Source of the DNA: an uncultured Clostridia bacterium
GTDB lineage: Bacteria; Bacillota; Clostridia; Christensenellales; CAG-138
Assembly (NCBI GenBank): GCA_947168565.1
Contig: CAMVMM010000004.1
Coordinates: 5,867-69,866, forward strand
Direction of reading: 5' to 3'
DNA length: 64,000 nt
The stretch's first letter is position 1. Every line of letters begins with the position of its first letter. This document shows positions 42,928 through 63,333 of this stretch, in pieces. Made by a program: the position numbers and the translations under genes. A model generated the notes under the pieces. That model searched no databases. It had not been told where the DNA came from and saw nothing but the letters and a program-made list of their open reading frames with translations.

Positions 42928-44625
42928 TTACGGCATATTCGCTCCGTTTCCGGTGCCGTTTCCCGCACCGTTTCCCGCTCCCTGCGCCGCGGCAAGCGCC
43001 AGCTCAAGCGCCTTATTTTTCATGAGCTGCACCGCCTGATCCTTGCCGTCGAAGATAAGAAGCTGCAATCCCACGTCCGGCGTAATCATACCCGCCGAAA
43101 CGAGGCGGAAAACGGTTTCGTTGTTGTTCAGCACGGAGAAGGCGTTTTCCTTCACTACCTTCACGGTAACGTGAAATTCCGCGGGCAGGCTGTCAAGCGA
43201 ATCCAGCGCGTGCTCAATGGCGGAAAGCCTTGCCACCTTCGCCGCGCTCTCGCCGTAGCCCATCTCGGAGCCGATCGCGGAAAGCGTTTTTTCGCAGCGG
43301 GCGCGGAGCGTGAACTCGCGTTCTATCTCTATCTCCTGGCAAACCGCCTTGCGGAACGCGGAATGGATGCTTCTTGCCGCCATGCGCGAGCGCTTGCTCG
43401 AAGCCTCCTGAAGCGCCGCTATCGCCACGCCGCTCGTAACGCCCGCATGGGTCATGCCGCGCGCAAATTCGTTTGCGCCGGATTCCTCCTTGATGGAGTT
43501 GCGCATCTCCGCGATATAGCTGAGCATATACGCGGGCAGGGGCGCCGTGGCAAACCACGAGATGCCGTTCAGATTATCGCCCTGATGCACCTCCTTGGAC
43601 CAATCCCGCAGATCGGCGGGATCGAAGCCGCTTGCGCCGGTGATAAGCAGCTTGTTGTGGCTTGCAAGCAGCGCGTTTTTCATAACTATCTGATCCAGCT
43701 TATCCGAATTGCGCTGGCTCGTTTCAAACATATCCACGAAGCCGTAGCCAAGGCAGCTTCCCTTGCGCTCATACATTTTGGTGACAACGAAGGGATATTC
43801 GCCGTGCGCAAAATAGCCGTTCGGACGCGCGATTCGGCTGTCCTCAAGCATCATGCCGCCCGCAAGCAGCATCATGTGGACCGCGTATTTCTCCGCTTCG
43901 GCATCGTACACCCTGCGCCAGCACTCTATAAGCAGTATGGTTTTTTCGCAGTCGGCGGTAAGCAGCTGCTCCTCCGGCGTGTCAAACATAAACCCGTCCT
44001 CCCGAAGCTCAGCCGCCTTGTCGGGGTAGTGCTGGATGAACCAGTCGCGCGTGTGGTGGGCGTATTTGAAAACGGCTCTGCCGTCCTGAATATCCGGCGC
44101 GAGGGGGTCGAAAAGCACGCTGCGCGCGTCCACGTGGCGGATGAACGCGCCGCCGATGCCGCCGTTCGCCGTTTCGTCAAAGCCTATCTGCTGCACGCCG
44201 TAGCCGCCCACAAGCAGATCGTGCGTCATCTTCAGATACTCCTCATCGTAGGCGCAGCGCAGATGGTTTTCGTGGATAATATGGGTAAATATCTCCGAAA
44301 GCGCGTCGTACTCCGGCGCGTCGGAGCTGACTATCGCCTCCGGCAGATGATCCGCAAGATCGGCGCGCACGTTCTCTATCGTGCTTTGGAGAACCGGCGT
44401 AACCGGGCGCGGCTCGCCCTTTTCGCCCATGGGCACGTCGTACCAATGCTCCCCGCGATACATACGCTCGCATTTATCCAGCCTTGCACGCTCCTGCGCG
44501 TATGCGGAGTAGAATTCGTTGAAAAGCGCATACAGCGCCTCCACCTCCTCCGCCTTGCCCATGGCCTTTTCGCTCGTTTCCGCTCCGTAAACGGGGCTTA
44601 TGCGCTTATTTGTTTTCTCCATCAT
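42928..44625 (-). CDS. Phage portal protein (candidate)
   Basis: Lies immediately downstream of TerL. At about 565 aa its size is typical of a portal, and it has an N-terminal region with MYRGEHW. The family assignment was not verifiable by eye. Start taken at MMEKTNK with a GAAAGGA RBS. Confidence 0.65.
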   Translation of the reverse strand: MMEKTNKRISPVYGAETSEKAMGKAEEVEALYALFNEFYSAYAQERARLDKCERMYRGEHWYDVPMGEKGEPRPVTPVLQSTIENVRADLADHLPEAIVSSDAPEYDALSEIFTHIIHENHLRCAYDEEYLKMTHDLLVGGYGVQQIGFDETANGGIGGAFIRHVDARSVLFDPLAPDIQDGRAVFKYAHHTRDWFIQHYPDKAAELREDGFMFDTPEEQLLTADCEKTILLIECWRRVYDAEAEKYAVHMMLLAGGMMLEDSRIARPNGYFAHGEYPFVVTKMYERKGSCLGYGFVDMFETSQRNSDKLDQIVMKNALLASHNKLLITGASGFDPADLRDWSKEVHQGDNLNGISWFATAPLPAYMLSYIAEMRNSIKEESGANEFARGMTHAGVTSGVAIAALQEASSKRSRMAARSIHSAFRKAVCQEIEIEREFTLRARCEKTLSAIGSEMGYGESAAKVARLSAIEHALDSLDSLPAEFHVTVKVVKENAFSVLNNNETVFRLVSAGMITPDVGLQLLIFDGKDQAVQLMKNKALELALAAAQGAGNGAGNGTGNGANMP

Positions 44626-44648
44626 GACTATCCTTTCTTTCAAATTAT

Positions 44649-44690
44649 AATTGCTAATTGCTAATTGCTCATTGCTAATTGCCAATTTCT
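44649..44690. repeat. Heptanucleotide tandem repeat (AATTGCT)x6, degenerate at the 3' units
   Basis: AATTGCT AATTGCT AATTGCT CATTGCT AATTGCC AATTTCT. Spans the TerL stop codon and the whole TerL-portal spacer. Confidence 0.85.
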
Positions 44691-46047
44691 AATCCCCGAT
44701 CGAATACCAGCTCGGCCCCGCCTCGGGCAGGCTCAGCGGGTCATACGCCTTTTTCTGAGCTATCACGGGCTCTCGGCCCGCATGGGGGCGGCTCATAAGG
44801 CCGTATCTGAGCGCCTCGGGCGCGTGGTCGTTGCCGTCGGCGGCGTCCTCGCGGTTCAGCCTGTCGAACTCCAGCATGGGGAGCTGGCGAATAAGATTGG
44901 TGCAGTTTTCAAAGCACTGCCACATCGCTCGCTCCCCGCCAAGGCCGTCCGGCTTCGGGGCAAGATATTCGCGCACGCGGTTCCAGCCGGAAATTCGGGA
45001 ATTGTCCGCCGGGGTGAGCGCAAGACCCGAGGAAGCGAAGAGCTCCGCAAGCGTTTCGCCCTCAAAGCCGCCGCTTGAAGCGAGCAGCGCGCCGCGCTTT
45101 TGCCACATATCGGGGGATGCAACGGTGTACGCTATGCTCTCGCCCTCGGAAAGCCTTTTCACCTCCGCCGCAACGAGGTCCGCGCGCATAAGGCGAACGT
45201 ACAGCTCGCGGTAGGTAAACACCCTGCCCTCGCCGTCCACCGCGTGCCACAGCACGCAGCAGGGGTCGTTGTAGCCCCAGTCCATTGAGCGGAAGCGCCG
45301 CCAGCCCGCTGGTATCTCAAACGGCTGCACAACGTGCTTTTCCCTTGAAAATTCGCGGAAATACTGCCCCGCGTGAACGTCCCAGTCGCCGTCCAGATGC
45401 GCCCTTCGCAGCTCCTCCGGCAGCGCCATGAGCTGGCGCACGTAGCCGGGGTCGCCCTTCATAAGCGCGGCGTTGTCGTAGATGCGGGCGGGTATGAAAA
45501 GATAGTCCTCCGCGCGTTCGCCTGCATTATACTGCCTGTCTATAAAAAGGCGTTTCACCCATGCGTGGCCAACGTTTCCCGGGTTGCAGGTGTAATACAT
45601 CCTTGGGGAAAAATCGCCCCTTGTGGTGCGGTTGCAGGTGGTTAGAAAGCGCATCTGCTCCTCGGTGAAATGCGTTGCCTCCTCCATGCCTATAACCGCG
45701 TATTCCTGCCCCTGATACTGGTAGATATCCTGCGCGGTGTCGCAATAGCCCAGCTTTATGCGCGAGCCGTTCGGAAAGCGAAACACGCGCTCGGTGGAAT
45801 TGTAGCTTGCCGCGCCCCAAAGCTCCCTTTGAAGCGGCACTATATGGTTTTCCCTCAGCTCCGGCAGCGTGCGCCGCAGCAGAAGCAGGTTCAGATTCGG
45901 ATAATTCAGCGCGAGCAGCACGAATTTTCTGCGCATCGCCCAGCTTTTGCCGCCGCCGCGCGCGCCTCCGTAGGCGGTGTGCCGCGCTTTTGAAAGAAAA
46001 AACTCCCTTTGCCGCGCATTCGGCACGCCATGCAGAATAAGCTCCAT
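44689..46047 (-). CDS. terL: Phage terminase large subunit
   Basis: Walker A YGGARGGGKS near the N-terminus, an ATPase plus RNaseH-like nuclease architecture, and phage TerL-like sequence throughout. Confidence 0.85.
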   Translation of the reverse strand: MELILHGVPNARQREFFLSKARHTAYGGARGGGKSWAMRRKFVLLALNYPNLNLLLLRRTLPELRENHIVPLQRELWGAASYNSTERVFRFPNGSRIKLGYCDTAQDIYQYQGQEYAVIGMEEATHFTEEQMRFLTTCNRTTRGDFSPRMYYTCNPGNVGHAWVKRLFIDRQYNAGERAEDYLFIPARIYDNAALMKGDPGYVRQLMALPEELRRAHLDGDWDVHAGQYFREFSREKHVVQPFEIPAGWRRFRSMDWGYNDPCCVLWHAVDGEGRVFTYRELYVRLMRADLVAAEVKRLSEGESIAYTVASPDMWQKRGALLASSGGFEGETLAELFASSGLALTPADNSRISGWNRVREYLAPKPDGLGGERAMWQCFENCTNLIRQLPMLEFDRLNREDAADGNDHAPEALRYGLMSRPHAGREPVIAQKKAYDPLSLPEAGPSWYSIGD

Positions 46048-46069
46048 ATTTAACTCACTTTTCCTTTGA

Positions 46070-46139
46070 TTTCGCTTGCTTTATTGCTTGCTATATTGCT
46101 TGCATTTTTGCTTGCTTTATTGCTTGCATTTTTGCTTGA
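46070..46139. repeat. Phased 11-12 bp repeat, about 6 copies of (W)TTGCTTGC, upstream of terL
   Basis: TTCGCTTGCT TTATTGCTTGCT ATATTGCTTGC ATTTTTGCTTGC TTTATTGCTTGC ATTTTTGCTTGA. Confidence 0.8.
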
Positions 46140-46583
46140 TGAGCCGCTCGGAAACGGTTCATACCTTTGTTTTCAGTAAAATGCGCCCCCGGCGCCGCTC
46201 CGAGCGTGAAAAATGAGAATGAATTGCTTTGCCCGGAAATGACCGTTTATTTGAAGGACTTCTTTCTTTCCCGCCGAATGGGGAACGGCGGCGTATGTGA
46301 AGCTCGAAGCGGCGAAGGGCGGCTGCGTTGGCTTATATTCAGTTTAAGAAAGGCGGATTTGCCTCCCTAATACTATTTTATCATTTATCGCGGTGGAGGC
46401 ACAAGGAAAAACCGCGCCCGATATGTGCTTAAAAATGCACAGGCGGAGTATTGACCCGGAAAGCTTACTGTGGTATCGCGCGCGCGAGGGGCGGCCTTGG
46501 CGGCATTTGGCGGCATTTGGGCTTTGCGGGGGAGGTGTGAAAAATGGTATAATAGAATTAGCGGCATTGCGGAAAGGAGTGAG

Positions 46584-46844
46584 ATGGCGGGGGAGAACCC
46601 GATGAATAAAACCGATGCTTCCTGCGTCAAAAAAAAGCGAAGCGGCGCGCAAAGCGAGAAAAGGCTCAGAAAGCTTGCGCTCGATACCATCATTTCCATG
46701 GTGAACGATACGGAACTCAAGCCCTCGGACAGGCTGAGCGCGGTGAAGGCGCTGCTTGATTACATCAAGTCCCAGCCCGAAAAGGCGGAGGACGATGCGC
46801 TCCGCGTTATCTTTGAAAATCTGCCGGAGGGGTACGCGGAGTGA
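46584..46844 (+). CDS. Small basic/helical protein (86 aa), possibly related to the TerS oligomerisation region
   Basis: AAAGGAG RBS 7 nt before the ATG at 46584, and a TG-extended TATAAT at 46547-46552. KPSDRLSAVKALLDY resembles the C-terminal helix region of Terminase_2-type small terminases. This is a weak call. Confidence 0.4.
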   Translation: MAGENPMNKTDASCVKKKRSGAQSEKRLRKLALDTIISMVNDTELKPSDRLSAVKALLDYIKSQPEKAEDDALRVIFENLPEGYAE

Positions 46845-46896
46845 TATGAAAGCGCTTTCAGCGTACTCCTCAAAGTAAAAAATCCAACGGCTGCGG

Positions 46897-46936
46897 ATAA
46901 AAAAACGGGGACCCGACGGTTTTTCGCCGGGTCCCC
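46897..46936 (-). terminator. Intrinsic terminator after the transglutaminase gene (hairpin shared with the convergent plus-strand gene)
   Basis: GGGGACCCG ... CGGGTCCCC 9-bp stem followed by GTTTTTTTAT on the minus strand. Confidence 0.7.
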
Positions 46937-46957
46937 TGCGTTATTATGACGAAAGGA

Positions 46958-51035: not shown

Positions 51036-51247
51036 CGGCATCCTCCGAATTGGATTTGTATACACTATAAGAGAATACCATAATCGCGGAATTTTGTAAA
51101 GATGTGAAATGTGGCAAAAGAATTAACGCTCGCTTTCAAACGGCGGGAAAACGGCGGAGAAAAGGCGGAATAAACGGCCGGCAAACGGCTTTGTCGGGTT
51201 AATTTATTAAATTTTTATTAACTTTTTATATTATCACGCGTTCGGCC

Positions 51248-51275
51248 TTGACATACTGAAAAAAACAGTTAAAAT
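51248..51275 (+). promoter_or_regulatory. Candidate promoter (TTGACA-16-TAAAAT)
   Basis: Hexamers at 51248-51253 and 51270-51275, upstream of the 51308 start. Confidence 0.45.
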
Positions 51276-51307
51276 GAGCGCATACAGGAGAAAAGGAGGC
51301 CGGCAAA

Positions 51308-52408
51308 ATGAAGCAAAAAGCATCATTCAAAAGCATGAGGCGCGCCGCCTGTGCGTGCATGGCGGCGCTCGCTGCACTCACGAGCCTTGCAGGCTGCGGC
51401 ACAAGTAACGATCCCACCCCTCGCGCGGAAGCGGATGCGGGAAAGGCGCGGACGGAAGCTCTGTTTACCGAGCCGCCGCGAAACGAGAAGCGCACGGAGG
51501 AAATCGAAGCGCCGAGCGAAGCAAGTGCGGATAAAAAGCCGGAGCAAACGCAGGAAGCGGGCAGCGGCAGCTTTGCACCGATACTCCGTTCGATCAGCGG
51601 CAGAGATGATCTGCTCATCCTTTCGCAAAGGCTGCTTGAGGGGAAACGGTTATACAATATTCCGACGGCGCATTACACCGGAGCGGTGTACTTCCGGGTT
51701 GAAGCCGATGGGCTGGTTGCCTATAACAGAAGGATCTATCCCGGGCCCGAGGAGCTATATGATCCTTTCGGCAATTTAGCGTATGATTTGGTTGAGCCGA
51801 TAGCGACCTATCCGAGGGAGCTTGGCATTGAGGCGAAAAAAAGCCTTGTTGATTTTTACAAAAGCAGCTATGATCCAAACTATCCTTCCGATGAGCCGGA
51901 AGGATTCGAGGGCTATACAGGCGATAACTACATTATCTTCACGAATGAAGTTTTCCATGGTATACAGGCCTCGGTGATATTCGTGACCTCTGATGGCTGG
52001 AAAACATGGAAGGAGGTGGAGGTTCCAACGATAGGAGGCTTTCCAAAGCACGTAACGGGCGGCTGTATGCTTTCCGATAAAGAGGGTTTCCTCTGCTTCT
52101 ATGAAAAAGCCACTTTGGGGGATGAATATAAGCTTGACGAGCTTTCGGTTTATAAAACGGCGGACGCCGGAGAAAGATGGCATCCCTTGAAATTGAGGAT
52201 CCCGCTTGATGAGGTCGGAGTGCTGTGCGATCCCATAACGGCGCTGTCGCCGATGTTTGACGGCGATCACGGCATAATGCTCGTGCAATACGGTCAATAT
52301 GTCAAGGAGTTTGACGAATGGGAAAGCTATATCGGCTGGTTTGAAACCTTCGATCGCGGCGAAAGCTGGGAGTTTCATCCCGATCCCGTTTCAAAGCTGT
52401 TTGAGTAA
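51308..52408 (+). CDS. Lipoprotein with BNR/Asp-box-like repeats (beta-propeller candidate)
   Basis: AAGGAGG RBS and lipobox SLAGC. Asp-box-like TSDGWKTW, TADAGERW and TFDRGESW. Confidence 0.6.
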   Translation: MKQKASFKSMRRAACACMAALAALTSLAGCGTSNDPTPRAEADAGKARTEALFTEPPRNEKRTEEIEAPSEASADKKPEQTQEAGSGSFAPILRSISGRDDLLILSQRLLEGKRLYNIPTAHYTGAVYFRVEADGLVAYNRRIYPGPEELYDPFGNLAYDLVEPIATYPRELGIEAKKSLVDFYKSSYDPNYPSDEPEGFEGYTGDNYIIFTNEVFHGIQASVIFVTSDGWKTWKEVEVPTIGGFPKHVTGGCMLSDKEGFLCFYEKATLGDEYKLDELSVYKTADAGERWHPLKLRIPLDEVGVLCDPITALSPMFDGDHGIMLVQYGQYVKEFDEWESYIGWFETFDRGESWEFHPDPVSKLFE

Positions 52409-52573
52409 CATAATAACGGTTTGAATACCGTTTGATACCGCGCGAACCCGTATGATCGCGTATGAAACCGCGCTATCCCCAAAAAAAGCTTTCCCCTCAG
52501 CTGCCTTACGGTGCGAAGGGAAAAGCTTTAATTCTATTCAATTTGAGGGATCGGTGTTCGCCGAACAGGGGGC

Positions 52574-53038: not shown

Positions 53039-53085
53039 AGTGTTTATCCTCCTTGGGAAGCTGTTGTTTTATGCGTTAGTATAAT

Positions 53086-54249: not shown

Positions 54250-54250
54250 T

Positions 54251-54688: not shown

Positions 54689-54903
54689 ATTCCGCACCTC
54701 CTTTGATACATTTGCCCGAACGGGCTCTCTTTCCTTGCATAAATCATACCACATGAATATGAATTAGTCAATAATTCCGAGTAAGTTTGTCGGATATATT
54801 TTCGATAACCGTTTAATCTGGAAGGAGCAGGGCGCGGAAGGAGTGAAAGAACGATCAAAACACCCTTATGCGGAGAAATAAGATAAATAAATTCTCTTAA
54901 CAG

Positions 54904-54932
54904 TTGACACACGCATGCGAACATGGTATAAT
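54904..54932 (+). promoter_or_regulatory. Consensus sigma-A promoter, TTGACA-17-TGgTATAAT
   Basis: Perfect -35 (54904-54909) and -10 (54927-54932) with a 17-nt spacer and a TG extension. Confidence 0.7.
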
Positions 54933-54938
54933 GGAAAT

Positions 54939-55070
54939 AGATGGGGATGCGTTGGCGCCGCTCTTTCCGTCGGAGTGGGTCTTTTTCGGCTGAAAGCCGG
55001 GGAGCCTTTTAAGCATACGCGCCGCAGCAAAGAGCACCGAACGGGCTTTAAGCCCTGCGGCGCTTTTTAT
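54939..55070 (+). promoter_or_regulatory. Candidate attenuation leader / short terminated RNA preceding the capsid block
   Basis: About 130 nt between the predicted TSS and the U-run. GCGCCGC occurs twice (54955-54961 and 55019-55025), and both copies are complementary to GCGGCGC at 55057-55063. Confidence 0.45.
55019..55070 (+). terminator. Strong intrinsic terminator inside the leader
   Basis: GCGCCGCA ... TGCGGCGC outer stem with an inner GGGC/GCCC hairpin, followed by TTTTTATTAT. Confidence 0.7.
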
Positions 55071-55178
55071 TATGCCGGACGCGATACCGAAATTAATTCC
55101 GCTTTTTTACTGCGGGAGTCGGCGGAGGGAGCAGCGCCGGGCGGAGCCGTCTTAAATAAGGAAAGGAACAGGCTTAGG

Positions 55179-55760
55179 ATGATGAAGAAAAGAAGGAGCA
55201 TCGCTGCGCTGATCGACGGCATTCTGGAAAGAAAGAGCGCGGAAACGGTCGGAATGGGCGAATCGGGCGAAGCAGGCGGTTCCGTCGGATCCGTCGGTTC
55301 CGGCGAAAGCTTTTCGCACGGGCGGGAGCATCTTGCAAGGCTGGGCGAGGCTTTTCTCGCAAGGCTGAGCATCCCGCAGGGGATGAGCGAGGAGGAGGCC
55401 GCGGAGAAGATAATCGAAATGTGGCGCTCCGCCGATGAAGCAGGCCTGACCCCAGCAGAGGGCGGTGGGTCTGATGAAGGTGAGCCGCAGCTCGCTTATG
55501 CGGCCGATGCGGAGGCCGAGGGCCATGGCGGGGAGCTTGAGAACGCGGAGGACGAAGCGGAGCTCGATTCTCCTTACGGGAGAGCCGCTTCCGAGGCAGG
55601 CGGCAGCTCCGCCCGCTCCGCAAAACTGCCCGCGCCGATTCGCGGCGGACTTTTCGAGGCTCCCGCGGCGGATTACGACAGCATGAGCGCGGAGCAGTTC
55701 AGAAGGCTGAAAAAGCAGCTTGAGCGCGCAAGCAGGGACGGCAGGAAGGTGCGCCTGTAA
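55179..55760 (+). CDS. Acidic, disordered protein with a basic C-terminal helix (scaffolding protein candidate)
   Basis: Lies directly upstream of the capsid gene. E/D/G-rich body and C-terminal SAEQFRRLKKQLERASRDGRKVRL. Confidence 0.45.
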   Translation: MMKKRRSIAALIDGILERKSAETVGMGESGEAGGSVGSVGSGESFSHGREHLARLGEAFLARLSIPQGMSEEEAAEKIIEMWRSADEAGLTPAEGGGSDEGEPQLAYAADAEAEGHGGELENAEDEAELDSPYGRAASEAGGSSARSAKLPAPIRGGLFEAPAADYDSMSAEQFRRLKKQLERASRDGRKVRL

Positions 55761-55864
55761 AAGCGCGTGGGGCGCGGAGGGCGCGGCAGCACAGCGCGGC
55801 TTTTCCCGCGCGAAAAACGAAGCACACAATATATTGAGTATATTAAAGAAAGGAAATTCTATTC

Positions 55865-57082
55865 ATGAGCACAGTTTATTCAAAGGTCGGCATGAACACC
55901 ACCGCCAACACTGGGGTGAAATTCCCCTCCAAGTTTTACGACAGGCAGCTTCTTGAAAGCGCCAAAACGCGCCTCGTGTATCAGGAGTTCGGTCAGAAGC
56001 GCTCCATTCCGAGAAACAACGGCAAGTACGTGAACTTCCGCCGCTGGAATCTTTTCGATCCCGCCAGGGCGGTGCGCGGCCTTGTTGAAGGCGTTACCCC
56101 CAACGGCCAGAGCCTTTCGCAGACCGAGGTGGAGGCCGAGGTGAAGCAGTACGGCGCCTACGTTGAGGTGACCGACCTTCTTGATCTTACCGCCTACGAC
56201 GCGGTGATAAACGATTCCGCGGAGCTTCTTGGCGAGCAGCTCGGCACCGTGGTGGAATGGGTCACGCGCGATGCAATAAGCTCCGGAAGCAACGTGCAGT
56301 ATGCGGGCGGCAAGGCCTCCAGAAGGCAGCTTTCCTCGAACGACAAGCTGACCACCGAGGAGATACGAAAGGCGGTGCGCACGCTTAAAAAGAACAAGGC
56401 GCGTCCCTTCAGCGAAAACGGCAGGCAGCCGCATTTCGTGTGCATCTGCTCGCCGGAGGCCACCTTCGATCTGCAGAACGATGAGATGTGGAAAAACGTG
56501 TCCACCTATTCCAATTCCGAGGCCATTTACAGCGGCGAGATCGGCAGGCTGTTCGGCGTGGTGTTCGTTGAAAGCACCGAGGCGAAGGTTTTCTCCCAGA
56601 CCGTGCGCAACTACGTTGACGACGATACCGAAAACAGCAAAGCCTTCGTGCTGAGGGACGAGCCCACGGAGGAGGAGCTTGCGTATCTCTCCGTTCCGGG
56701 AAACAGGCTCTGCATCGGTGAAAACGAGTACACGCTTGCTTCCGAAAACCCCTACGATCCCGAGACCCGCACCGTGTACCTTTCGGACACCGCTTCGCTC
56801 AGCGCGGACGAAGCCGTTTGGAGCGACGATGCGGGCGAGCGCGAGCCGGGCAGCAACCGCGCAAAGGACGTTCACGGCACGCTCGTTTTCGGCAGGGACG
56901 CATACGGCGTTGTGGACGTTGAGGGCAAGGGCGCTGTGCAGCTCATCGTGAAGCCCCACGGCTCCAGCGGCACCGCCGACCCCCTCGATCAGCGCGCGAC
57001 CGTGGGCGCGAAGGTGACCGCGTATACCGCCGCGATCCTGAACGATCTGTGGATAGTGCGCATCGAGCACACCGTGAGCTGA
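55865..57082 (+). CDS. Major capsid protein, N4-gp56 family (HK97 fold)
   Basis: FPSKFYDRQLLESAKTRLVYQEFGQKRSIPRNNGKYVNFRRW and VKQYGAYVEVTDLLDLTAYD closely match my memory of this family. Confidence 0.85.
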   Translation: MSTVYSKVGMNTTANTGVKFPSKFYDRQLLESAKTRLVYQEFGQKRSIPRNNGKYVNFRRWNLFDPARAVRGLVEGVTPNGQSLSQTEVEAEVKQYGAYVEVTDLLDLTAYDAVINDSAELLGEQLGTVVEWVTRDAISSGSNVQYAGGKASRRQLSSNDKLTTEEIRKAVRTLKKNKARPFSENGRQPHFVCICSPEATFDLQNDEMWKNVSTYSNSEAIYSGEIGRLFGVVFVESTEAKVFSQTVRNYVDDDTENSKAFVLRDEPTEEELAYLSVPGNRLCIGENEYTLASENPYDPETRTVYLSDTASLSADEAVWSDDAGEREPGSNRAKDVHGTLVFGRDAYGVVDVEGKGAVQLIVKPHGSSGTADPLDQRATVGAKVTAYTAAILNDLWIVRIEHTVS

Positions 57083-57171
57083 CGGGCGGAAAGCCCGCCG
57101 ATAAGCGCGGATAAAGCAAGGGGGCGGGGGAAAGCCGCCCCCGAACGGAAAAAACAGAAACGGGGGATAAA

Positions 57172-58500
57172 ATGGCAAAAAACTTTTTCACAAGCGGCAG
57201 GATAAGCCCCGGCATGAAAAGAAGGGTAAACGATGACGTGAAGCCCATTCGCCCGCAGTATTCCGAAATGGGCGGCCCGGGCGGCTATACCGCTTCGGGA
57301 GGAGCGCCGACCGGCTCCGGCGGCAATTCCGCAGCAAACGCGGGCGGCGGAGGCTACGCGGGCGGCTTTTTCGGAGCGCAGGGCGGCTCGGGAGGCTACG
57401 CGCAGGCGGGCCATGCGAACTATCACAGCGGCGAGGGCACAAGCGGCGAAGGCAGCGCGGATAATCACGGCGGCAATACGGGCGGCGGCAATACGGGCGG
57501 CGGCAATATGGGCGGCTACGATGCGGGCAGCTTTGAGGATTATTACAGCCGCCTTATCGCGGCGCTGCACAGTTACGGCATAGATATGGCGTTGCCCACG
57601 CTGGACGAGCTGTATTCGCAGCTTTCAGCATTCCTGCGCCCTTCGGTGGATGCGGCGATCGCGGGCAGGCAGAGATACGGCGAAACCGTGATGGCGGAGC
57701 TGGACGCGGACGCATATTCGCGCGGGATGGGCTCATCGAGCTATCTTTCAAGCATGAAGAACCGCGAGTATGACGATATTGCAAACGATATTGCCGCGAT
57801 GGAAACCAATTACAATTCCACCCTTGCGGAATATCTTTACAATGCGTCAAACGAGCTTGCGAGCATTCAGACTCGCTTTGCGGAGATGCGCCGTCAGCAT
57901 GAGCTTGAGATGGAGCGCCAGCTTCAGCAGCAGGCGTATGAAAACGAGCGCTTGAGGCGGCAGCAGGAGTTTGAGGCGGAGCAGGAGCGGCTCAGGCGTG
58001 CCTACGAGATGGAGAGGCTGCGTCAGCAGCAGGAGTTTGAGCGGGCGATGCGCCTTCAGGCGGCAAGCGCCGCTTCCGGCGGCTCGGGCGGCGGTCACGG
58101 CTCCGGCTCGGGCGGCTCGGGCGGCTCCGGCAGCTCCGGCAGCTCCGGCGGCTCCGGCGGCTCCGGCGGCGGAAGCGGAAAGCCCAAGCCGAATAAGCCC
58201 GGCGCAGCGGGCTCGGGCGGCTCCGGCGGCTATACGGATGCCGGCACGGGCGACAGCGCGCATTATTACAATTATTCCGTGTATCTGAATTCGCTCTCCT
58301 CCGCCGATCGCGCAAGCGTGTTCGGCAGCAATTCCTCCTATTGGAGCGCAATACGCGAGGAGCTTATGCGAAATCTTTCGCCCGATCAGTATGAGCGGCT
58401 GCGCAGGCAGTACGATCCGCACTATTCGCAGGGCGGAGGCGGCGGCACAAGCTCCGGCCAGGCTCCGGGAAGACCGTGGAACGTGAACACCACGAACTGA
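57172..58500 (+). CDS. Gly-rich / Q-E-R coiled-coil protein, unknown function
   Basis: GGGGGA RBS. Two long Gly/Ser tracts flank a helical ERLRRQQEFE-repeat segment. Confidence 0.5.
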   Translation: MAKNFFTSGRISPGMKRRVNDDVKPIRPQYSEMGGPGGYTASGGAPTGSGGNSAANAGGGGYAGGFFGAQGGSGGYAQAGHANYHSGEGTSGEGSADNHGGNTGGGNTGGGNMGGYDAGSFEDYYSRLIAALHSYGIDMALPTLDELYSQLSAFLRPSVDAAIAGRQRYGETVMAELDADAYSRGMGSSSYLSSMKNREYDDIANDIAAMETNYNSTLAEYLYNASNELASIQTRFAEMRRQHELEMERQLQQQAYENERLRRQQEFEAEQERLRRAYEMERLRQQQEFERAMRLQAASAASGGSGGGHGSGSGGSGGSGSSGSSGGSGGSGGGSGKPKPNKPGAAGSGGSGGYTDAGTGDSAHYYNYSVYLNSLSSADRASVFGSNSSYWSAIREELMRNLSPDQYERLRRQYDPHYSQGGGGGTSSGQAPGRPWNVNTTN

Positions 58501-58712
58501 AGAAAGCGGATGCGGAGGGCGTAACGCGAGGCGAAAAGGGGCGGCACGGGGCCTGCCGCCCCTAAAACGGAAGGAATGCGCATGGATGAAGGAGCCGGAT
58601 CAAGGCAGGCCTGAGCCGATGGCATAAGCACGTCAATTATACGAAATATATGAGCAGATAAAAGAAATAATCGAATGAAACGAGTGATCGGGAACACAAA
58701 GGAGAAAACGGA

Positions 58713-59468
58713 ATGAAGAGTGCATTGGATTTTATTCGCTTCGCGCTTTCCCACGCCAAATTTGAAAGCATTCCGGTGGGCACAAAGCTGCCGCTGGATA
58801 TAGAGGAGTGCGCCCTGGAGGAATGGGAATACCTTCCCGGAATGAAGGGCGAGCTGGTCACGAAGGAAACGCTTGAAGCGAAGTATGAGAATTTTTATAA
58901 GCTTTGCGGCTGGACGAGGGAGAAATTCGATCATCTGACGGGCAGCTTCGCCCAAAGAAGGGTGCATGCTTGCGACAGCCAGGGGCTGCTGGCTGCATAC
59001 ACCGGCATGGAGGCAACGCCGAATTACTGTTACAGCGCGTGGTGCTCCGATAAGGGCAGGATAGGCGAGGTCAAGCGGCCCTATGCGATAGGCGAAGCGG
59101 TGTTTGTGATGGATAAGGAGGAGCGCATGATGCACACGGGCTTCATCTGCGGGCAGATCGGCGGGGAGCCGCTGGTGGTGGAGGCGCGCGGCGTTGTTTA
59201 CGGCGTGTGCGTCACAAGGCTTTCCGACCGACCGTGGACGCACAGGGGGCTGTGTACCAGAAGGCTCATCTACGATGAAGGCTGCTACGATGAGCAGATC
59301 GTGCTGAGCCTTCAAAAGCCCATGATGCAGGGCGAGGCGGTGAAGCTGCTTCAGCGCGCGCTGAATGCCCTCGGCTATTTCGCGGGGGAGGCGGACGGGA
59401 AATGCGGCGAATTTACCCTTGGCGCAATAAAGGAGTTTTCAAGGGCGCATTTGACGCGGCTGCTGTAA
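58713..59468 (+). CDS. Cell-wall hydrolase candidate: NlpC/P60-like domain plus PG_binding_1 domain
   Basis: AAAGGAG RBS. ACDSQGLL / MHTGFI pattern reminiscent of C40 peptidases. C-terminal GEAVKLLQRALNALGYFAGEADGKCGEFTLGAIKEF peptidoglycan-binding repeat. Confidence 0.6.
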   Translation: MKSALDFIRFALSHAKFESIPVGTKLPLDIEECALEEWEYLPGMKGELVTKETLEAKYENFYKLCGWTREKFDHLTGSFAQRRVHACDSQGLLAAYTGMEATPNYCYSAWCSDKGRIGEVKRPYAIGEAVFVMDKEERMMHTGFICGQIGGEPLVVEARGVVYGVCVTRLSDRPWTHRGLCTRRLIYDEGCYDEQIVLSLQKPMMQGEAVKLLQRALNALGYFAGEADGKCGEFTLGAIKEFSRAHLTRLL

Positions 59469-59587
59469 AACAGTAAAAAGAAGTCGAAACGGTTGATGAT
59501 TCGGTTGGCATGCTCATATAGCGCGGCGATCGGGGCAAGGAAATGCGCCTTCAAGCGAAAAAACCAAGAATAAAAGGCAAAAAAGCG

Positions 59588-60640
59588 CTATTTTGCCGAG
59601 CGGGGCTTTCTTTTGAGCGCAAGTATGCTTATAAGCGCACCAAGCAGCACCAGCGCGATACCGCAGCCCTTCAGCACGCCTATCGCTTCGCCAAACACCA
59701 GCATGCTTGTGAGCGAGGCGAAAACGGGCTCAAGCGTGTTGAGCGCGGCGGCGGGAGCGGAGCCGAGTATGCGAATGCCGCGGAGCAGCAGCCGCAGACC
59801 GAAAATATACCCAAGTGCCGCCTCAAGTATGAGCAGCACCCAGATGAAAAAATCGGAGGGTATGGTGAGGCGCTTTGAAACGGCGGCAACCATGAAGCTT
59901 AAAAGCGATGCAGCGCCGGTGATATACACGTTTGAAACGGAGGTATCGAGCGCGGCGTAGCTTGAGTTTCTGCCCGCAAGGAAATACACCGCGTAGGCAA
60001 CGCCGGAGGCGAGCGCAAGCAAAATGCCGGCTATATCCACGCTGCCGGAAAACGAGGCGCTTGAAATCAGCGCGATGCCGGCTATTGCGAAAACCAGCGA
60101 GGTAAACAGCGCATAGCTCGCCTTCTCCTTAAAAAACAGGATGCCCGCAAGCAGCACGAACACCGGATAGGTGAAGTTTATAACTATCGTCATTCCGGCG
60201 GGGATATGCAGGTATGCGTAGGTGATGAGAAGCAGCGTGGAGGCAAGCGCTCCGCCGCCGAGCGTGGAAAGCTGAACGAGCTGCCTGCCGCTCACCCCAA
60301 GGCGCTTGCGGGAGATAAGGCAGCTTAAAAGCGAGAGCACGCAGGCAATGCCCATGCATAGGGCAACGAGCGTTTCGTTGCCAACGGCGCGGGCGGGGGA
60401 GGCGATCAGCGAATCCGCGAAGGGAAGCGAGCCGAGCGAGCGCTGCACGAATGCCCGGGGAAGCCCGCCGCGGAGCGCGGCGTTTGACAGGATCGGCGTA
60501 ACGCCGTAGCAGGCGGAGGCAAGAATCACGCACACTACGCCAAAAAACACGCTGCCGCCCTTTTTTGCACAGCTGCCGCCATTGGCGCGCTTATTTGCGG
60601 AGGAATTGTTTTTTGCACTCATTTGCATAGAGCCTTTCAT
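59588..60640 (-). CDS. EamA/DMT family transporter
   Basis: About 10 TM helices in two EamA halves. C-terminal LEPVFASLTSMLVFGEAI pattern. The start is ambiguous among ATGs at 60640, 60628 and 60622. Confidence 0.8.
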   Translation of the reverse strand: MKGSMQMSAKNNSSANKRANGGSCAKKGGSVFFGVVCVILASACYGVTPILSNAALRGGLPRAFVQRSLGSLPFADSLIASPARAVGNETLVALCMGIACVLSLLSCLISRKRLGVSGRQLVQLSTLGGGALASTLLLITYAYLHIPAGMTIVINFTYPVFVLLAGILFFKEKASYALFTSLVFAIAGIALISSASFSGSVDIAGILLALASGVAYAVYFLAGRNSSYAALDTSVSNVYITGAASLLSFMVAAVSKRLTIPSDFFIWVLLILEAALGYIFGLRLLLRGIRILGSAPAAALNTLEPVFASLTSMLVFGEAIGVLKGCGIALVLLGALISILALKRKPRSAK

Positions 60641-60760
60641 TTAAATTACAGCGTCTATATTACAACATTTGAAGCGATTTGTCGAGAACGGATTTCTTTT
60701 TGACCGCATTTGCTTCGAGCAGAGCGGGGAAAAGGAGCCTTGGGCGAAAGGAGAGAAAAA

Positions 60761-60970
60761 ATGAAGCTTGAAAGCATAATCATTGAAAAAACGGGCAGCG
60801 GAGAGCCGTTTGAGTGCTGCGTTAATTCGGTAAACTACCGCATAGAGCGCGGCGTTCCCGTTTCCGTGCCTGCGGAGGTGGCGGAGGTTTACAGGCGCAG
60901 CCTTACGGAAAGGCTCAAGAGCGAAAAGCAGCTTGAACGCTTCCGCAAAGCGGACGGAATGAAGCTTTAA
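60761..60970 (+). CDS. Small hypothetical protein (69 aa)
   Basis: AAAGGAGAG RBS, positioned ahead of the adaptor-like gene. Confidence 0.45.
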   Translation: MKLESIIIEKTGSGEPFECCVNSVNYRIERGVPVSVPAEVAEVYRRSLTERLKSEKQLERFRKADGMKL

Positions 60971-61059
60971 TGAAGGTAAGCAAGGTCAATGCGGTCAGGA
61001 AGGCTAAAAGGAAAAGGCTCATAAGAAAAAAAGGATAGGCTGTTTATGGAGGTAAAAGA

Positions 61060-61599
61060 ATGACTTTGAATGATATTATCGTTTCTTCGCTTGCCCAGCT
61101 CGACCGTTCGCACGATATGCAGACGGTGGAGGTATACAGAAGCCGCTTTGCGCAGTTTGCAAACGATGCGCAAAACGATCTTGCCCTCGCCCTTGCGCTC
61201 AAGCGGACCGAAACGCTTGTGCCGGAGGAGGGCGTGCTCGATCTTACGCAGCTTGAAAGAAAGTGCTATCGCGTTGAAAGCGTTTGCCAGCTCGGAAGAA
61301 GGGTGCCCTTCAGCTCGGGCGACACGCCGATGCGTCTTTACGTGCCGTACAACGAGGAAGCGGAGGTGACCTACCGCTTCGCGCCGCAGAAGCTTGAAAC
61401 CGCGTCCGACGTGAGCGAGCTTCCCGCCGCGCTGCATCCGCTGATAGTGAGCTACGTTGTGGGAAGGGAGCGCATGGGGGGCGACGTTTCCACCCAGGGC
61501 GGCGGAAACATCTACCTTTCCATGTATAACGCGGCGAAGGCGAAGCTGCGCGGAGGCTTCGGCGGGGAGGAAAGGTTCACCATCACAAACAGGTATTGA
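61060..61599 (+). CDS. Head-to-tail adaptor/connector candidate
   Basis: GGAGGT RBS. Size (179 aa) and its position before a hub-like gene parallel P22 gp4. The N-terminus MTLNDIIVSSLAQL resembles gp6-like connector starts. Confidence 0.4.
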   Translation: MTLNDIIVSSLAQLDRSHDMQTVEVYRSRFAQFANDAQNDLALALALKRTETLVPEEGVLDLTQLERKCYRVESVCQLGRRVPFSSGDTPMRLYVPYNEEAEVTYRFAPQKLETASDVSELPAALHPLIVSYVVGRERMGGDVSTQGGGNIYLSMYNAAKAKLRGGFGGEERFTITNRY

Positions 61600-61602
61600 A
61601 GC

Positions 61603-63018
61603 ATGAGCATAAAAACGTTTGAGATCCCGTATTTTACCGGAATAAACCAATCCGGCTTTGAAAACACGCTGCCGTCAAGATTTGCGATAGACGCGGTGAA
61701 TATGGATACCGAGGGCGGAAAGCTGCGCGTTGCGGACGGCTTTTATAAATACTCCGCGCTGCCCGTGCCGGACATGGGGCGCATAGAGCTGCTCTGCTGC
61801 CTTAAAACGCCGGAGGGGGACGTGCCGGTAGTTATGAGCGGGGGAAAGCTTTTCGCGCTCAGCGGCGGGAGCTGGACTCATTTTTACACGGCGCAAAGGA
61901 CTTCGTCGAACGTGACCTGCGATTCCGCAATGGTGCGCATAGGCTCAACGGATTATCTTGTGATAGCCGACGGGGAGAATCAGCTCATAAAGTTCGACGG
62001 CGAAAGCGTTTCGCCCTTCGGCTCGGAGGAAAACTGCTCCGATATACCGGTTTCGTATCTCACGATGTATCGCGGCAGGCTCTTTGCGGCGGGCGATCCC
62101 GAAAATCCGGACAGGCTGTATTACTCGGTGCTGCCGGGAAGCGGGCGCACGGTGGAAAACTGGGGCTACGTGGAGGCCTCGCCCGCAGTTGAGGGCGGCC
62201 ATACGGACGTGGGCTCAATCGGCGGCGATCCCATAGTGGCGATAAAGGCGCTTTCCAATCAGCTTTTGATCTTCAAAAGGCACAGCCTGTACCGGCTTAT
62301 CGGCGATCGGCCCTCAAACTACACCATAGAGCATATCGACGCGGATATGCTTGAAACCAAGCATACGGCGATCTCCGTTTACGGGGATATGCTCTATTTC
62401 GTAACGCAGGAGGGGCTGCATTATTACAACGGCGTTACCGTTCGCCCCTGCCCCGATATGCGCTGCATCAAAAGTATCATGGCAAGGGCCGAGCTTGCCA
62501 AATGCCGCTCGGTGATCGCGGGGGGCAGGCTCTATTTCAATTACACGAGCGGAATGGGCGATGAAATGATGGTTTACGACCTTGAGGAGCGCAAGTATAT
62601 GCGCCGAAACGGATTTGAGGTCAGCTTTCTTGCGGTGATGAACGGTAAGCTCATCATGATAAACAGAAATCGCATCCTGTATGAGTTCGGCGCTTCCTCA
62701 AGCTATGACGGCGCGCCCATCGAAGCGTATTGGAAAACGCCCATCTCCGATCTTGGCGACAAGGCGGCTATAAAAAGCCCCCGAATGCTCTATCTGCGCG
62801 GGAGCGGCAGCGCCATAAGGATAGAAGTGGAGCTGGACGGCAGCAAAAGCGGCTATATCGCCCTGCTTCGTCGAAACGGCGAGCTTTCCGTAACGGAAAT
62901 TCCCGTTTTCAACGAGGGAAGGTGCCTTTCGCTCACCTTTTCCAACGTGAACGGCGGGTATTTCGAGCTGGAGGGCGGAGTGGAGCTTGAGATGAGGCTG
63001 CGCCGCAGAACGGAGTGA
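61603..63018 (+). CDS. Tail hub / DNA-stabilisation protein candidate (P22 gp10-like)
   Basis: Translationally coupled to the upstream gene. 471 aa versus 472 aa for P22 gp10. Beta-rich, with local pattern resemblance. Unverified. Confidence 0.4.
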   Translation: MSIKTFEIPYFTGINQSGFENTLPSRFAIDAVNMDTEGGKLRVADGFYKYSALPVPDMGRIELLCCLKTPEGDVPVVMSGGKLFALSGGSWTHFYTAQRTSSNVTCDSAMVRIGSTDYLVIADGENQLIKFDGESVSPFGSEENCSDIPVSYLTMYRGRLFAAGDPENPDRLYYSVLPGSGRTVENWGYVEASPAVEGGHTDVGSIGGDPIVAIKALSNQLLIFKRHSLYRLIGDRPSNYTIEHIDADMLETKHTAISVYGDMLYFVTQEGLHYYNGVTVRPCPDMRCIKSIMARAELAKCRSVIAGGRLYFNYTSGMGDEMMVYDLEERKYMRRNGFEVSFLAVMNGKLIMINRNRILYEFGASSSYDGAPIEAYWKTPISDLGDKAAIKSPRMLYLRGSGSAIRIEVELDGSKSGYIALLRRNGELSVTEIPVFNEGRCLSLTFSNVNGGYFELEGGVELEMRLRRRTE

Positions 63019-63099
63019 GGCAAGCGGAGACTCGGAAAGAGCCATGCTCGGCAAGAGCGGAGCGCGATTTGTAATGATGGATGAAAGGAGAGCCGAAAT

Positions 63100-63333
63100 A
63101 TGGATATGAGAGCGCTTTATTATATCTATCTGCCTTCGGAGCGCGGCAGGAATGAGGACGCTCAGAAGCATGATGAGGACGTGAAGGCGAATGAAAACTG
63201 CCTCAATCAGAATTTTTCGCTGCTTGCGGGCAAGATCTATGAGTATGAAGCCCGCCTCGCCCTGCTTGAGCAGGCGCTTGAAAGGGTGGATTCGGCGCTG
63301 AACGCCGGCGATCGGGCGGGGGAGGGCAGATAA
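63100..63333 (+). CDS. Short coiled-coil protein (needle/plug-like candidate)
   Basis: AAAGGAGAG RBS. Heptad-like FSLLAGKIYEYEARLALLEQALERV. Confidence 0.35.
   Translation: MDMRALYYIYLPSERGRNEDAQKHDEDVKANENCLNQNFSLLAGKIYEYEARLALLEQALERVDSALNAGDRAGEGR

Follow-up and report, generated by a model that had tools for sequence, protein, structure and literature searches.

To our knowledge, gene transfer agents (GTAs) had for a long time been described almost exclusively in Alphaproteobacteria, until 2024/2026 brought the first report of one resembling podoviruses in gut Firmicutes, in a single genus: FpGTA of Faecalibacterium prausnitzii (PMC12946183, Nat Commun 2026; bioRxiv 2024.11.15.623857). 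Its genes form two operons lying 125 kb apart. Operon I comprises ten open reading frames (ORFs) in 10.5 kb, among them what may be the small subunit of terminase (TerS) without DNA-binding domain, the large subunit (TerL), a portal, a Prp-like protein, a major capsid protein (MCP) of the N4-gp56 family, a nozzle annotated via PDB entry 8eap and a 'TolA' protein that is abundant in the particles, while operon II contributes a BppU-like fibre, a receptor-binding protein, a holin and an endolysin (PMC12946183). The particles, for which proteomics has been done, have 40 nm capsids and contain ~8.5 kb of host DNA (PMC12946183). The same work found GTA-like packaging in Christensenellaceae (HGM11616, ~4.1 kb; QANA01, ~6.3 kb) as well as in Gemmiger, Ruminococcus callidus and others, with no loci identified (PMC12946183). 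Here we analyze a 64-kb stretch of DNA from an uncultured Clostridia bacterium, called the window throughout and providing all coordinates, in which phage-type genes for DNA packaging and for a head with a short tail stand in two blocks on opposite strands among host operons. We consider it likely that the two blocks represent a domesticated, chromosomally fixed, podovirus-derived viriform of the GTA type, carried by a clade of rumen and gut Clostridia.

The window element and FpGTA are both podovirus-like particle gene sets fixed in the chromosomes of gut Clostridia, and they correspond in several respects. In each case TerL is of the Terminase_6 type and is accompanied by a low-complexity coiled-coil protein, and the window has in s86 a candidate, weak in its matches, for a TerS without DNA-binding domain such as the one suggested for FpGTA. 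The window MCP falls into the NCBIfam family N4-gp56 (TIGR04387), and RCH50849 of FpGTA bears the same PGAP name; the window nozzle matches 8eap (P22 gp10), the very PDB entry that served to annotate RCH50846. Both elements are moreover distributed over several loci, and among relatives of the window element there are genes for a BppU-like fibre, an endolysin and a holin, the kind of repertoire found in FpGTA operon II. An initial annotation, made from the letters alone, had placed TerL and portal on the minus strand at 42.9-46.0 kb, which Pfam and PHROG matches bear out, and a scaffold-like gene, an N4-gp56 capsid, an adaptor, a 471-aa hub and a coiled coil on the plus strand at 55.2-63.3 kb, all of which are present and intact. 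It expected no precedent for a short-tailed GTA in Clostridia, which is outdated, as FpGTA had been described earlier (PMC12946183).

The two elements also differ. Operon I of FpGTA is a contiguous 10.5 kb, whereas in the window ~9 kb of host genes separates the two modules, which are encoded on different strands, and only a distant relative, L013 (relatives are coded L001 and so on), has a contiguous set. FpGTA carries a Prp-like protease gene between portal and MCP, but neither the window nor its clade has one, and the N-terminus of the window MCP lacks the Prp-type motif LNLQxF/A (the slash marks the cleavage position), unlike L009 and L010. The host of FpGTA belongs to the Ruminococcaceae, whereas the members found here are named Christensenellales or Christensenellaceae. 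L009 (MT836218.1) and L010 (MT835662.1), our proxies for the FpGTA-like group, are unannotated GenBank entries from human faeces, labeled 'Bacteriophage sp.', which look like chromosomal GTA-type loci of Ruminococcaceae-like bacteria. L010 is organized as TerL-portal-Prp-like-scaffold-MCP-nozzle-holin, and the L009 MCP begins with MEMNLQMF/A, a cleavage motif of the ribosomal-L27/Prp type. Compared to the window, the proxies show 35-37% identity in MCP and 26% in portal (L009, L010) and 32% in TerL (L010 only), and their nozzles align to the window nozzle with hhalign probabilities of 94% (L010) and 85% (L009). The L010-type MCP cluster has 1370 members, located on contigs of up to 880 kb, with Ruminococcaceae-named relatives; cluster look-ups and a homologue search with the L010 scaffold returned Ruminococcaceae, Ruminiclostridium and Eubacterium names and no Faecalibacterium-named member. 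Judged from these alignments, the window element is a distant relative of the FpGTA-like group or, possibly, an independent domestication from the same podophage stock.

Because PDB searches based on sequence only, run with the nozzle, its 4-sequence profile, the MCP and the portal, yielded nothing useful or weak matches, structure prediction was needed for the nozzle. Its AlphaFold2 model, calculated from a 40-sequence multiple sequence alignment, reached a predicted local distance difference test score (pLDDT) of 90.8 and a predicted template-modeling score of 0.89. The best Foldseek matches of this model in the PDB were nozzles and hubs of podoviruses, among them the tail of Pseudomonas phage Pa223 (9nwi_Y, E 1e-23, TM 0.81), and further Vibrio phage VP1 (8zkk_O), P22 gp10 (8eap_D, E 1e-16), GP4, Sf6, T7 gp12 and SU10. 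Together with the SU10-type adaptor encoded directly upstream, these matches confirm the short-tail architecture, which the initial annotation had likened to P22 and which corresponds to the adaptor and nozzle arrangement of P22 gp4/gp10 and SU10. In relatives, the adaptor is conserved at 39-59% identity and is always followed by the nozzle, and a 100% identical nozzle homologue (P0653) is found on a 149-kb contig. The MCP has relatives in more than 120 clusters formed at 90% identity, which share 66-100% identity with the window protein and reside on contigs of up to 424 kb; P0352, which belongs to the P0093 MCP cluster (67% to the window), is recorded on a 2.6-Mb contig.

To follow the element through related genomes, we used the transglutaminase encoded between the blocks as query and obtained three metagenome-assembled genomes of rumen Clostridia (L001-L003). 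Their transglutaminase is only 59-62% identical to that of the window, yet TerL shows 91% and the portal 87% identity. In all three, TerL-portal is located between the transglutaminase operon and lipoproteins, as in the window, with L002 and L003 running on into polA; in L003, Rrf2-NifS-NifU is followed divergently by the scaffold, the MCP (86%), the 442-aa protein and the peptidoglycan-binding protein. L004 (MCP 83%; on contigs of up to 424 kb, L004 itself stemming from a 161-kb contig) carries the full set among host genes. Its left part reads polA - DUF3307 - SatD - portal - TerL - s86 - LPG_synthase_C - NifU - NifS - Rrf2 and its right part scaffold - MCP - 442-aa protein (p57172 homologue) - peptidoglycan-binding protein - EamA on the minus strand - 69-aa protein - adaptor - nozzle - 72-aa protein. 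Directly after the 72-aa gene follow the host genes MIP, a leucine-rich-repeat protein, glnA and yidC; the same holds for L005 and L006, and polA precedes the set. According to this order, the set ends where the initial annotation had ended it, the MoxR-DUF58-transglutaminase genes are dispensable filler and EamA is a conserved passenger. Synteny is common to the window, L001-L004, L016 and L017 and includes both blocks and Rrf2-nifS-nifU, so that the synteny on which the initial annotation had made its case depend is present.

We quantified selection by the Nei-Gojobori method as the ratio of nonsynonymous to synonymous substitution rates (dN/dS) and as synonymous divergence (dS), the values in Table 1 comparing the window to L003. 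The structural genes proved to be constrained as strongly as polA and nifS, at comparable dS, which settles the question of purifying selection raised by the initial annotation in its favour. Against L001-L003 the ratios were 0.09 for TerL and 0.10-0.12 for the portal, and over the relatives compared they were 0.14-0.17 for the MCP and 0.21-0.25 for the 442-aa protein; against L004, the nozzle and the peptidoglycan-binding protein gave 0.15 each and the adaptor 0.32. As both measures resemble those of the host neighbours, the particle genes diverge at the pace of the chromosome under housekeeping-grade constraint. In addition, identity to the window falls in the same order, L003, L004, L015, L013, for TerL (91, 81, 72, 58%), portal (87, 74, 63, 52%) and MCP (86, 83, 72, 60%), which shows that the modules co-diverge even where they are unlinked. 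Values of 0.09-0.17 at a dS of 0.6-1.2, equal to those of housekeeping neighbours, are hard to reconcile with a cryptic prophage remnant that has been split by rearrangement and is being lost: a neutral remnant would be riddled with stops, whereas all ORFs align with their homologues over nearly their full length. Such a remnant would fit the host genes between the blocks, the absence of a fibre and a holin from the window and the fact that no integrase, repressor or replication genes were found, but not a set that has been kept through at least four layouts, more than 120 MCP clusters and 418 TerL relatives, and we regard it as very improbable. The low dN/dS, the neighbour-like dS and the retention of the set through shuffled layouts instead indicate long vertical inheritance under selection, and on these grounds we are confident that the blocks are a domesticated, selected particle gene set.

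Table 1. Features of the particle locus, with coordinates in the 64-kb window, and Nei-Gojobori values against L003 for particle and host genes.
Feature	Coordinates	Strand	Basis	dN/dS	dS
Portal, P22/SU10 type	42928-44625	minus	Pfam P22_portal 1e-22, SU10_portal 2e-11; PHROG 156 3e-38	0.115	0.69
TerL, large terminase	44689-46047	minus	Terminase_6N 2e-13; PHROG 979 9e-53; PHROG 2 3e-39	0.089	0.68
TerL promoter (putative) and ~330-nt leader	46048-46404	minus	invariant blocks in five-genome alignment		
s86, 86 aa, candidate TerS core	46584-46844	plus	divergent from TerL		
Capsid-operon promoter and leader	54889-55178	plus	promoter scan; conservation in relatives		
Scaffolding protein (assigned by position)	55179-55760	plus	directly upstream of MCP; acidic, variable body		
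MCP, N4-gp56 family, HK97 fold	55865-57082	plus	TIGR04387 253.8 bits vs cutoff 60; PHROG 1357 1e-67	0.166	0.58
442-aa Gly/Ser-rich, Q/E/R coiled-coil protein	57172-58500	plus	homologues in every lineage examined		
251-aa peptidoglycan-binding protein, candidate lysin	58713-59468	plus	C-terminal PG_binding_1 4e-8		
EamA-family transporter	59588-60640	minus	EamA 7e-21; antisense inside structural block		
69-aa protein preceding adaptor	60761-60970	plus	PHROG 15239, unknown function, 1e-5		
Head-to-tail adaptor, SU10 type	61060-61599	plus	Pfam SU10_adaptor 4e-6, 27.8 bits vs cutoff 27		
Tail nozzle/hub, 471 aa, beta-propeller, P22 gp10-like	61603-63018	plus	AlphaFold2 and Foldseek; PHROG 511, 3287 virion proteins		
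77-aa coiled-coil protein, last gene of set	63100-63333	plus	position after nozzle		
polA				0.148	0.96
NifS		minus		0.089	0.60
MoxR		minus		0.104	0.72
Transglutaminase		minus		0.297	1.09

The gene set occurs in at least four chromosomal layouts. L013 (MCP 60%) is contiguous and has the phage-like order TerL-portal-scaffold-MCP-small-adaptor-nozzle-p77-p57172 (p77 and p57172 standing for the counterparts of the 77-aa and 442-aa genes). L015 and four metagenome loci share the order scaffold-MCP-p57172-BppU-PGB-EamA(-)-TerL-portal, and L047-L055 likewise run from the MCP to EamA-TerL-portal. In L014, whose MCP is P0352 and is indexed in 1636 blocks of the assembly collection, we found scaffold-MCP-p57172-BppU(618 aa)-NlpC/P60+PG_binding-holin-EamA(-)-small-adaptor-nozzle-small and no TerL nearby. 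L007 and L008 read scaffold-MCP-small-adaptor-nozzle-small-p57172-BppU_N and continue with further small genes, L007 ending on a collagen-like fibre protein and L008 on NlpC/P60 and a holin, with no TerL within 10 kb. A metagenome scan with TerL returned 418 relatives, and layouts were read at 80 of these loci: the portal follows TerL in 71 of the 80, that is, in all those long enough to show it, and at 16 loci with complete 10-kb flanks TerL-portal, with or without s86, stands alone among unrelated genes. The arrangement seen in the window, portal<-TerL<- ... <-nifU<-nifS<-rrf2 / scaffold->capsid->, could be derived from the contiguous TerL-portal-scaffold-capsid order of L013, as one inversion carrying the upstream host genes along would yield it. 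Named members of the family are Christensenellales, Christensenellaceae, Eubacteriales or Clostridia bacteria; P0352 goes under Christensenellales bacterium, with one record of it also bearing the name Gastranaerophilaceae.

A TerL-portal pair that stands alone, unrelated sequence extending for 10 kb to its left and right, could not excise, and this bears on a further explanation, namely that the blocks belong to an active mobile element, either a prophage with cargo or a satellite resembling the capsid-forming phage-inducible chromosomal islands (cf-PICIs), the rest of which lies outside the window and which recurs through site-specific reintegration. The window does stop 667 bp after the last structural gene. 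cf-PICIs carry genes for TerL, TerS, portal, capsid and connector, as the window element would, along with an integrase; they have no tail genes and depend on a helper. No integrase appears among the window ORFs scanned and no att-like direct repeats around either block, and the window contains tail adaptor and nozzle genes, which cf-PICIs lack. Furthermore, recent reintegration is hard to square with the dS of the phage-like genes, which is on a par with that of the host genes beside them, and in L004-L006 the set is bounded by polA before it and by MIP, the leucine-rich-repeat protein, glnA and yidC directly after it. We therefore give very little credence to a mobile element. Prophage modules (integrase, att, repressor switch, replication, lysis) were found neither in the window as scanned nor in the 10-kb flanks of the relatives, with the exception of the fibre (BppU_N), NlpC/P60 and holin genes of the family members L007, L008 and L014. 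Within the window, the Pfam scan covered the principal long ORFs outside both blocks, including 20 in the first 35 kb, with a few mid-sized ORFs left out; no integrase or repressor was found among them, several having no Pfam match at all. Homologues of the BppU-like fibre, holin and NlpC/P60 genes of the family are absent from the entire 64 kb. The report of the initial annotation that integrase, att repeats, holin and fibre are lacking thus holds for the window as scanned, but not for the element family, in which fibre and lysis genes exist. The comparison lends strong support to its broader proposal, that of a domesticated GTA-like locus and not a prophage. In relatives, the set ends at the equivalent of the 77-aa gene, host genes follow, and there is no lysogeny or replication module.

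Phage collections offered little that is close. Megablast of 42-64 kb against GenBank phages gave no match, only two short contigs matched in IMG/VR, and no complete phage with close homologues was found. The closest capsid of a cultured phage is that of the Bacillus megaterium Pagevirus group (Page, Pony, Pascal), with 38% identity over 74% of the MCP, and the gene order of Page, TerS-TerL-portal-scaffold-MCP-tail, recurs in the contiguous L013. Pageviruses are, however, autonomous 40-kb phages with genes for replication, lysis, a tail spike and internal proteins. With RcGTA, CcGTA and BaGTA, the window element has in common vertical inheritance under purifying selection, the absence of integration and replication genes, dispersed loci and possibly a TerS without DNA-binding domain, the latter reported for RcGTA and suggested for FpGTA (PMC12946183). 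Those agents are siphovirus-like, with tape measure and tail tube, whereas the window element has a short tail with adaptor and nozzle, and apart from sharing the HK97, portal and TerL folds, the two are unrelated in sequence.

The packaging module would consist of s86, TerL and portal, with TerL upstream of the portal, an order not given in the initial annotation, which had listed the two jointly. TerL, which carries the Walker A motif GGARGGGKS, and the portal are 91% and 87% identical, respectively, in L001-L003. The portal ORF spans 42928-44685 on the minus strand and opens with TTG; its likely start is the ATG at 44625, preceded by an AAAGGA ribosome-binding site. The third gene, s86, which the initial annotation had missed together with the 442-aa and 251-aa genes of the other block, is preceded by a TGGTATAAT -10 element at 46545-46553. 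The window s86 is 79-87% identical to the copies of L001-L003 and L016 and 59% to that of L004, a 78-aa homologue sharing 56-61% identity with the window and L001-L003 copies. Of the 80 metagenome loci, 38 have it together with TerL-portal, in one of two layouts: upstream in divergent orientation, or downstream of the portal. No Pfam family matches s86. A profile of eight diverse members nevertheless aligned to small terminases of the PDB (7uxe_A, E 3e-4, residues 84-119 of 189; 6w7t_I, E 0.095), and four of the eight members matched positions 86-125 of 162 in PHROG 641, 'terminase small subunit', at E about 1e-2. These matches, weak in score, are confined to the core region of the solved proteins, and they offer weak to moderate grounds for s86 being a TerS without the N-terminal DNA-binding domain. 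Such a core would favour sequence-independent headful packaging of host DNA. The minus-strand ORFs s46344 and s46385 (46.3-46.7 kb) were dismissed as antisense artefacts of s86. Two repeats adjoin TerL: a window-specific 12-nt tandem repeat in six copies (TTGCTTGCWTTWTT on the plus strand) at 46058-46150, directly upstream of the TerL start and absent from L001-L004 in the leader alignment, and AGCAATT-type 7-nt repeats that fill the TerL-portal junction (44650-44698).

The second module would provide the head and the short tail, namely scaffold, N4-gp56-type capsid, adaptor, P22-gp10-like nozzle and a small plug-like coiled coil, the identities following from sequence and structure matches or, for scaffold and plug, from position. 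The scaffold is assigned by position and composition; it matches no Pfam, PHROG or NCBIfam family, and only its C-terminal ~44 aa are conserved in all lineages (43-52% identity). A longer 281-aa ORF for it, starting at 54915, would take in the promoter. The same module contains the 442-aa Gly-rich coiled-coil protein and the peptidoglycan-binding protein, the candidate lysin. The former has homologues in L003, L004, L007, L008 and L012-L015, at varying positions in the block, and its Pfam matches are of the coiled-coil type only; going by the name of the abundant 'TolA-like' FpGTA virion protein RCH50844, it may be the counterpart of that protein. The 251-aa protein, 54-65% identical in L004, L012 and L015, is matched by PHROG endolysin families at the C-terminus only. 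Its N-terminal ~200 aa have no assignment, and a single-sequence AlphaFold model of the protein gave a pLDDT of 35. It occupies the place where L014 encodes an NlpC/P60+PG_binding endolysin, with no detectable N-terminal similarity to that protein, and a motif-based guess of an NlpC/P60-like fold for this domain was discarded, having no Pfam support at E up to 5. The small genes around the tail are equally constant in place: 69-96-aa homologues lie directly upstream of the adaptor and 56-72-aa homologues directly after the nozzle in L004, L007, L008, L013 and L014. The 77-aa protein has no family match; its position makes a plug or needle-like element possible. EamA, found antisense inside the block as initially annotated, has the same antisense place, after the lysin/holin position, in L004, L012, L014, L015 and L047-L058 and reads as a conserved passenger of the block. 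Its persistence in at least five lineages with otherwise different layouts is unusual for a mere passenger gene. ORF p59543 was dismissed as an antisense artefact of EamA.

Both operons are preceded by structured leaders. The putative TerL promoter combines TTGTGC (46404-46399) with a conserved extended -10 element, TGATAAAAT (46383-46375). Its leader comprises a conserved 5' hairpin (46367-46348), a second hairpin, CGCCG..CCCCATT..CGGCG (46293-46271), and an invariant, single-stranded AAGCCAACGCA (9-mer at 46332-46324); RNAalifold predicted two hairpins in which 4 pairs have changed in a compensatory manner. Ahead of the capsid operon, at 54904-54932, stands a perfect TTGACA-17-TATAAT promoter with TG; it scored 12/12 in a promoter scan, which also finds a terminator. 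A AAATTCTCTTAAC box (54889-54901) lies upstream of it, and the initial transcribed sequence is GATGGGGATGCGTTGGCG (54940-54957), both conserved in L003 and L004 and partly in L015. The 246-nt capsid leader folds into terminator-like hairpins with U-runs at 54958-54986 and 55019-55073, and comparable leader terminators were seen in 6 of the 7 lineages examined. No Rfam family matched the TerL or capsid leader, even at a permissive threshold. Exactly two copies of the 9-mer TGCGTTGGC are present in the window, one at 46324-46332 in the TerL leader and one at 54948-54956 in the capsid leader, and the 9-mer has the same two-leader placement in L004-L006 (L004 positions 5500 and 9380). Its count alone is not significant (1.17 expected); its placement and conservation are striking. 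An ATGGGG element stands next to it in both leaders, at different spacing. As the two copies have the same chromosomal orientation, the one in the TerL leader is inverted relative to transcription, which makes 9 + 6 nt of one leader RNA complementary to the other (CCCCAU/AUGGGG). TGCGTTGGC may be either a protein operator or an RNA-RNA pairing site.

This organization recalls CcGTA, where an attenuating promoter-proximal leader is relieved by a dedicated antiterminator (PMC11150451), and BaGTA, where an attenuating leader is likewise under antitermination control (bioRxiv 10.1101/2024.11.20.624540). In the window, a consensus sigma-70-type promoter would fire into the leader terminators of the capsid operon, and with both leaders carrying TGCGTTGGC, the two operons might be kept silent by termination until an antiterminator or other regulator turns on both at once, as in CcGTA and BaGTA. 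No counterpart of the regulators GafA, GafYZ or BrrG was identified here. A palindromic AATTAGTCAATAATTCCGAG at 54762-54781, just upstream of rrf2 and ~120 bp from the capsid promoter, is conserved in L003 and L004; it is probably an Rrf2/IscR-type operator of the rrf2-nifS-nifU operon.

What the particles do is a separate matter, and several points count against the GTA interpretation as a whole. High conservation testifies to selection and not to what the particles do; whereas the particles of FpGTA have been observed, the window element is known from its genes alone, and its likeness to FpGTA was drawn from the published description and the proxies L009/L010, not from the RCH50844-RCH50852 sequences. 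The TerS assignment of s86 relies on weak scores (E 3e-4 for the PDB, about 1e-2 for PHROGs). The two TGCGTTGGC copies are opposite relative to transcription and lie at different distances from their promoters, which is awkward for a simple common operator, and no antiterminator or regulator gene for the two operons was identified. Finally, there is no tail fibre or receptor-binding gene and no holin in the window, nor do L003 and L004 have a BppU-like gene inside the block, and the particles of this sub-lineage could be incomplete or non-infective. The missing fibre and lysis genes, which constitute the main weakness of a full GTA assignment here, would on our reading reside at a third locus, with the BppU-like fibre and holin genes placed as in FpGTA operon II, unless the sub-lineage has lost them.

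The same absence of a fibre or receptor-binding gene and a holin from the sub-lineage block would suit domesticated genes whose particles serve an end other than DNA transfer, be it killing in the manner of PBSX or a bacteriocin, release of DNA or other contents at lysis, or another use of DNA-filled capsids. All evidence for domestication fits this explanation equally, and the authors of the FpGTA study leave a PBSX-like action of their own particles open (PMC12946183). PBSX of Bacillus subtilis, cited there as the other Gram-positive precedent for FpGTA (PMC12946183), likewise derives from a phage, is fixed in its host and packages fragments of host DNA. It is, however, myovirus-like, its genes sit together at a single contiguous prophage-like locus that also encodes a repressor and a sigma-like activator, and it kills without transferring DNA; we detected no homology to it beyond a sub-threshold match of TerL to the PBSX-family model (51 bits vs a cutoff of 105). 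Moreover, a packaging motor (TerL, portal, TerS-like protein) and an ejection conduit (adaptor, nozzle) have both been kept under purifying selection, which is easier to explain if DNA is packaged and delivered, and relatives keep BppU-like fibres beside the same genes. A particle that transfers no DNA appears unlikely to us on balance, though clearly less so than a remnant or a mobile element. For the GTA interpretation in its strict form, in which the particles package and transfer random host DNA, we see about even prospects.

The surroundings of the blocks are those of an ordinary chromosome. The particle genes amount to ~11 kb, the whole set spanning ~20 kb including ~9 kb of host genes. 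The genes separating the blocks, namely transglutaminase, DUF58, MoxR, NifU, NifS and Rrf2, are all on the minus strand, the Pfam match of DUF58 being sub-threshold (18.1 bits vs a cutoff of 23.4). The ~9 kb of host operons reported initially are thus present, but the MoxR-DUF58-transglutaminase part is variable and absent in L004. Similarly, the 'BNR lipoprotein' between the blocks, a plus-strand gene at 51308-52408, does have a lipoprotein signal, but it matches nothing in Pfam or PHROG and its BNR label has no support. On the left flank, two paralogous lipoprotein genes are followed by a full-length bacterial polA and by coaE, the two flanking genes named initially. The lipoprotein paralogues (41097-41801 and 41994-42743, minus strand) are 50% identical over most of their length, and identity is 97% over the 94 nt of their 5' ends, pointing to gene conversion in the part that encodes the signal peptide. 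The copy number in relatives is between one and three, L002 having three. Since DUF3307-SatD takes their place in L004, the paralogues downstream of the portal were ruled out as parts of the element. For a lytic transglycosylase-like gene beside coaE (36787-37413, minus strand), the PHROG matches are phage 'lytic tail protein' and endolysin families (E 4e-31), and its product is 32% identical to the lytic tail fibre of Bacillus phage Page. We read it as a host gene that is easily mistaken for a phage lysis gene; conceivably, the particle makes use of it.

Among the main ORFs scanned elsewhere in the window are nadE, dnaX, hisS, clostripain, sortase and polysaccharide genes, along with a tRNA-Arg. 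A 2787-aa ORF (14859-25804, minus strand) lies beside the sortase gene and gives only a weak, sub-threshold Cna_B match close to the C-terminus (17.6 bits vs 22.3); it is a putative giant adhesin or surface protein, not a virion RNA polymerase. Together with polA, this ORF had prompted the idea that the whole window is a large N4-like or crAss-like phage, which was ruled out: polA encodes a complete Pol I of the bacterial kind and has coaE after it, the giant ORF is probably a surface protein, and everything else is housekeeping. Between 26000 and 34100, the GC content is 49-53% compared to 55-62% elsewhere; this stretch, which adjoins tRNA-Arg(CCT) at 34242-34318, encodes a glycosyltransferase, an ATP-grasp protein, a 2-hydroxyacid dehydrogenase and a DegT-type aminotransferase and is probably a variable surface-polysaccharide island.

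The locus is the first concrete candidate for hosts of the Christensenellales type, in which GTA-like packaging had been seen without the genes being named (PMC12946183). It belongs to a large family, in which capsid clusters number more than 120 and TerL relatives 418; several of these are on chromosome-sized contigs and many come from the human gut. More tentatively, and with somewhat more doubt than conviction, we suggest that the window shows one arrangement of a family of podovirus-derived viriforms that is old, extends order-wide through Christensenellales-type Clostridia and is distinct from the Prp-dependent Ruminococcaceae/FpGTA lineage. Its packaging, head-tail and fibre-lysis modules would be scattered yet co-selected and would be co-regulated via leader terminators and the shared motif, through antitermination or possibly through pairing of the leader RNAs, and it may be the source of the 4-6-kb GTA-like packaging of Christensenellaceae from the human gut. 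The rearrangement series, which leads from a contiguous set to three separate loci, shows how a phage genome is dismantled and absorbed into host operons while staying functional. Should control prove to be exerted at the leader terminators and the shared motif, GTAs beyond the Alphaproteobacteria too would be governed by antitermination as a general principle.

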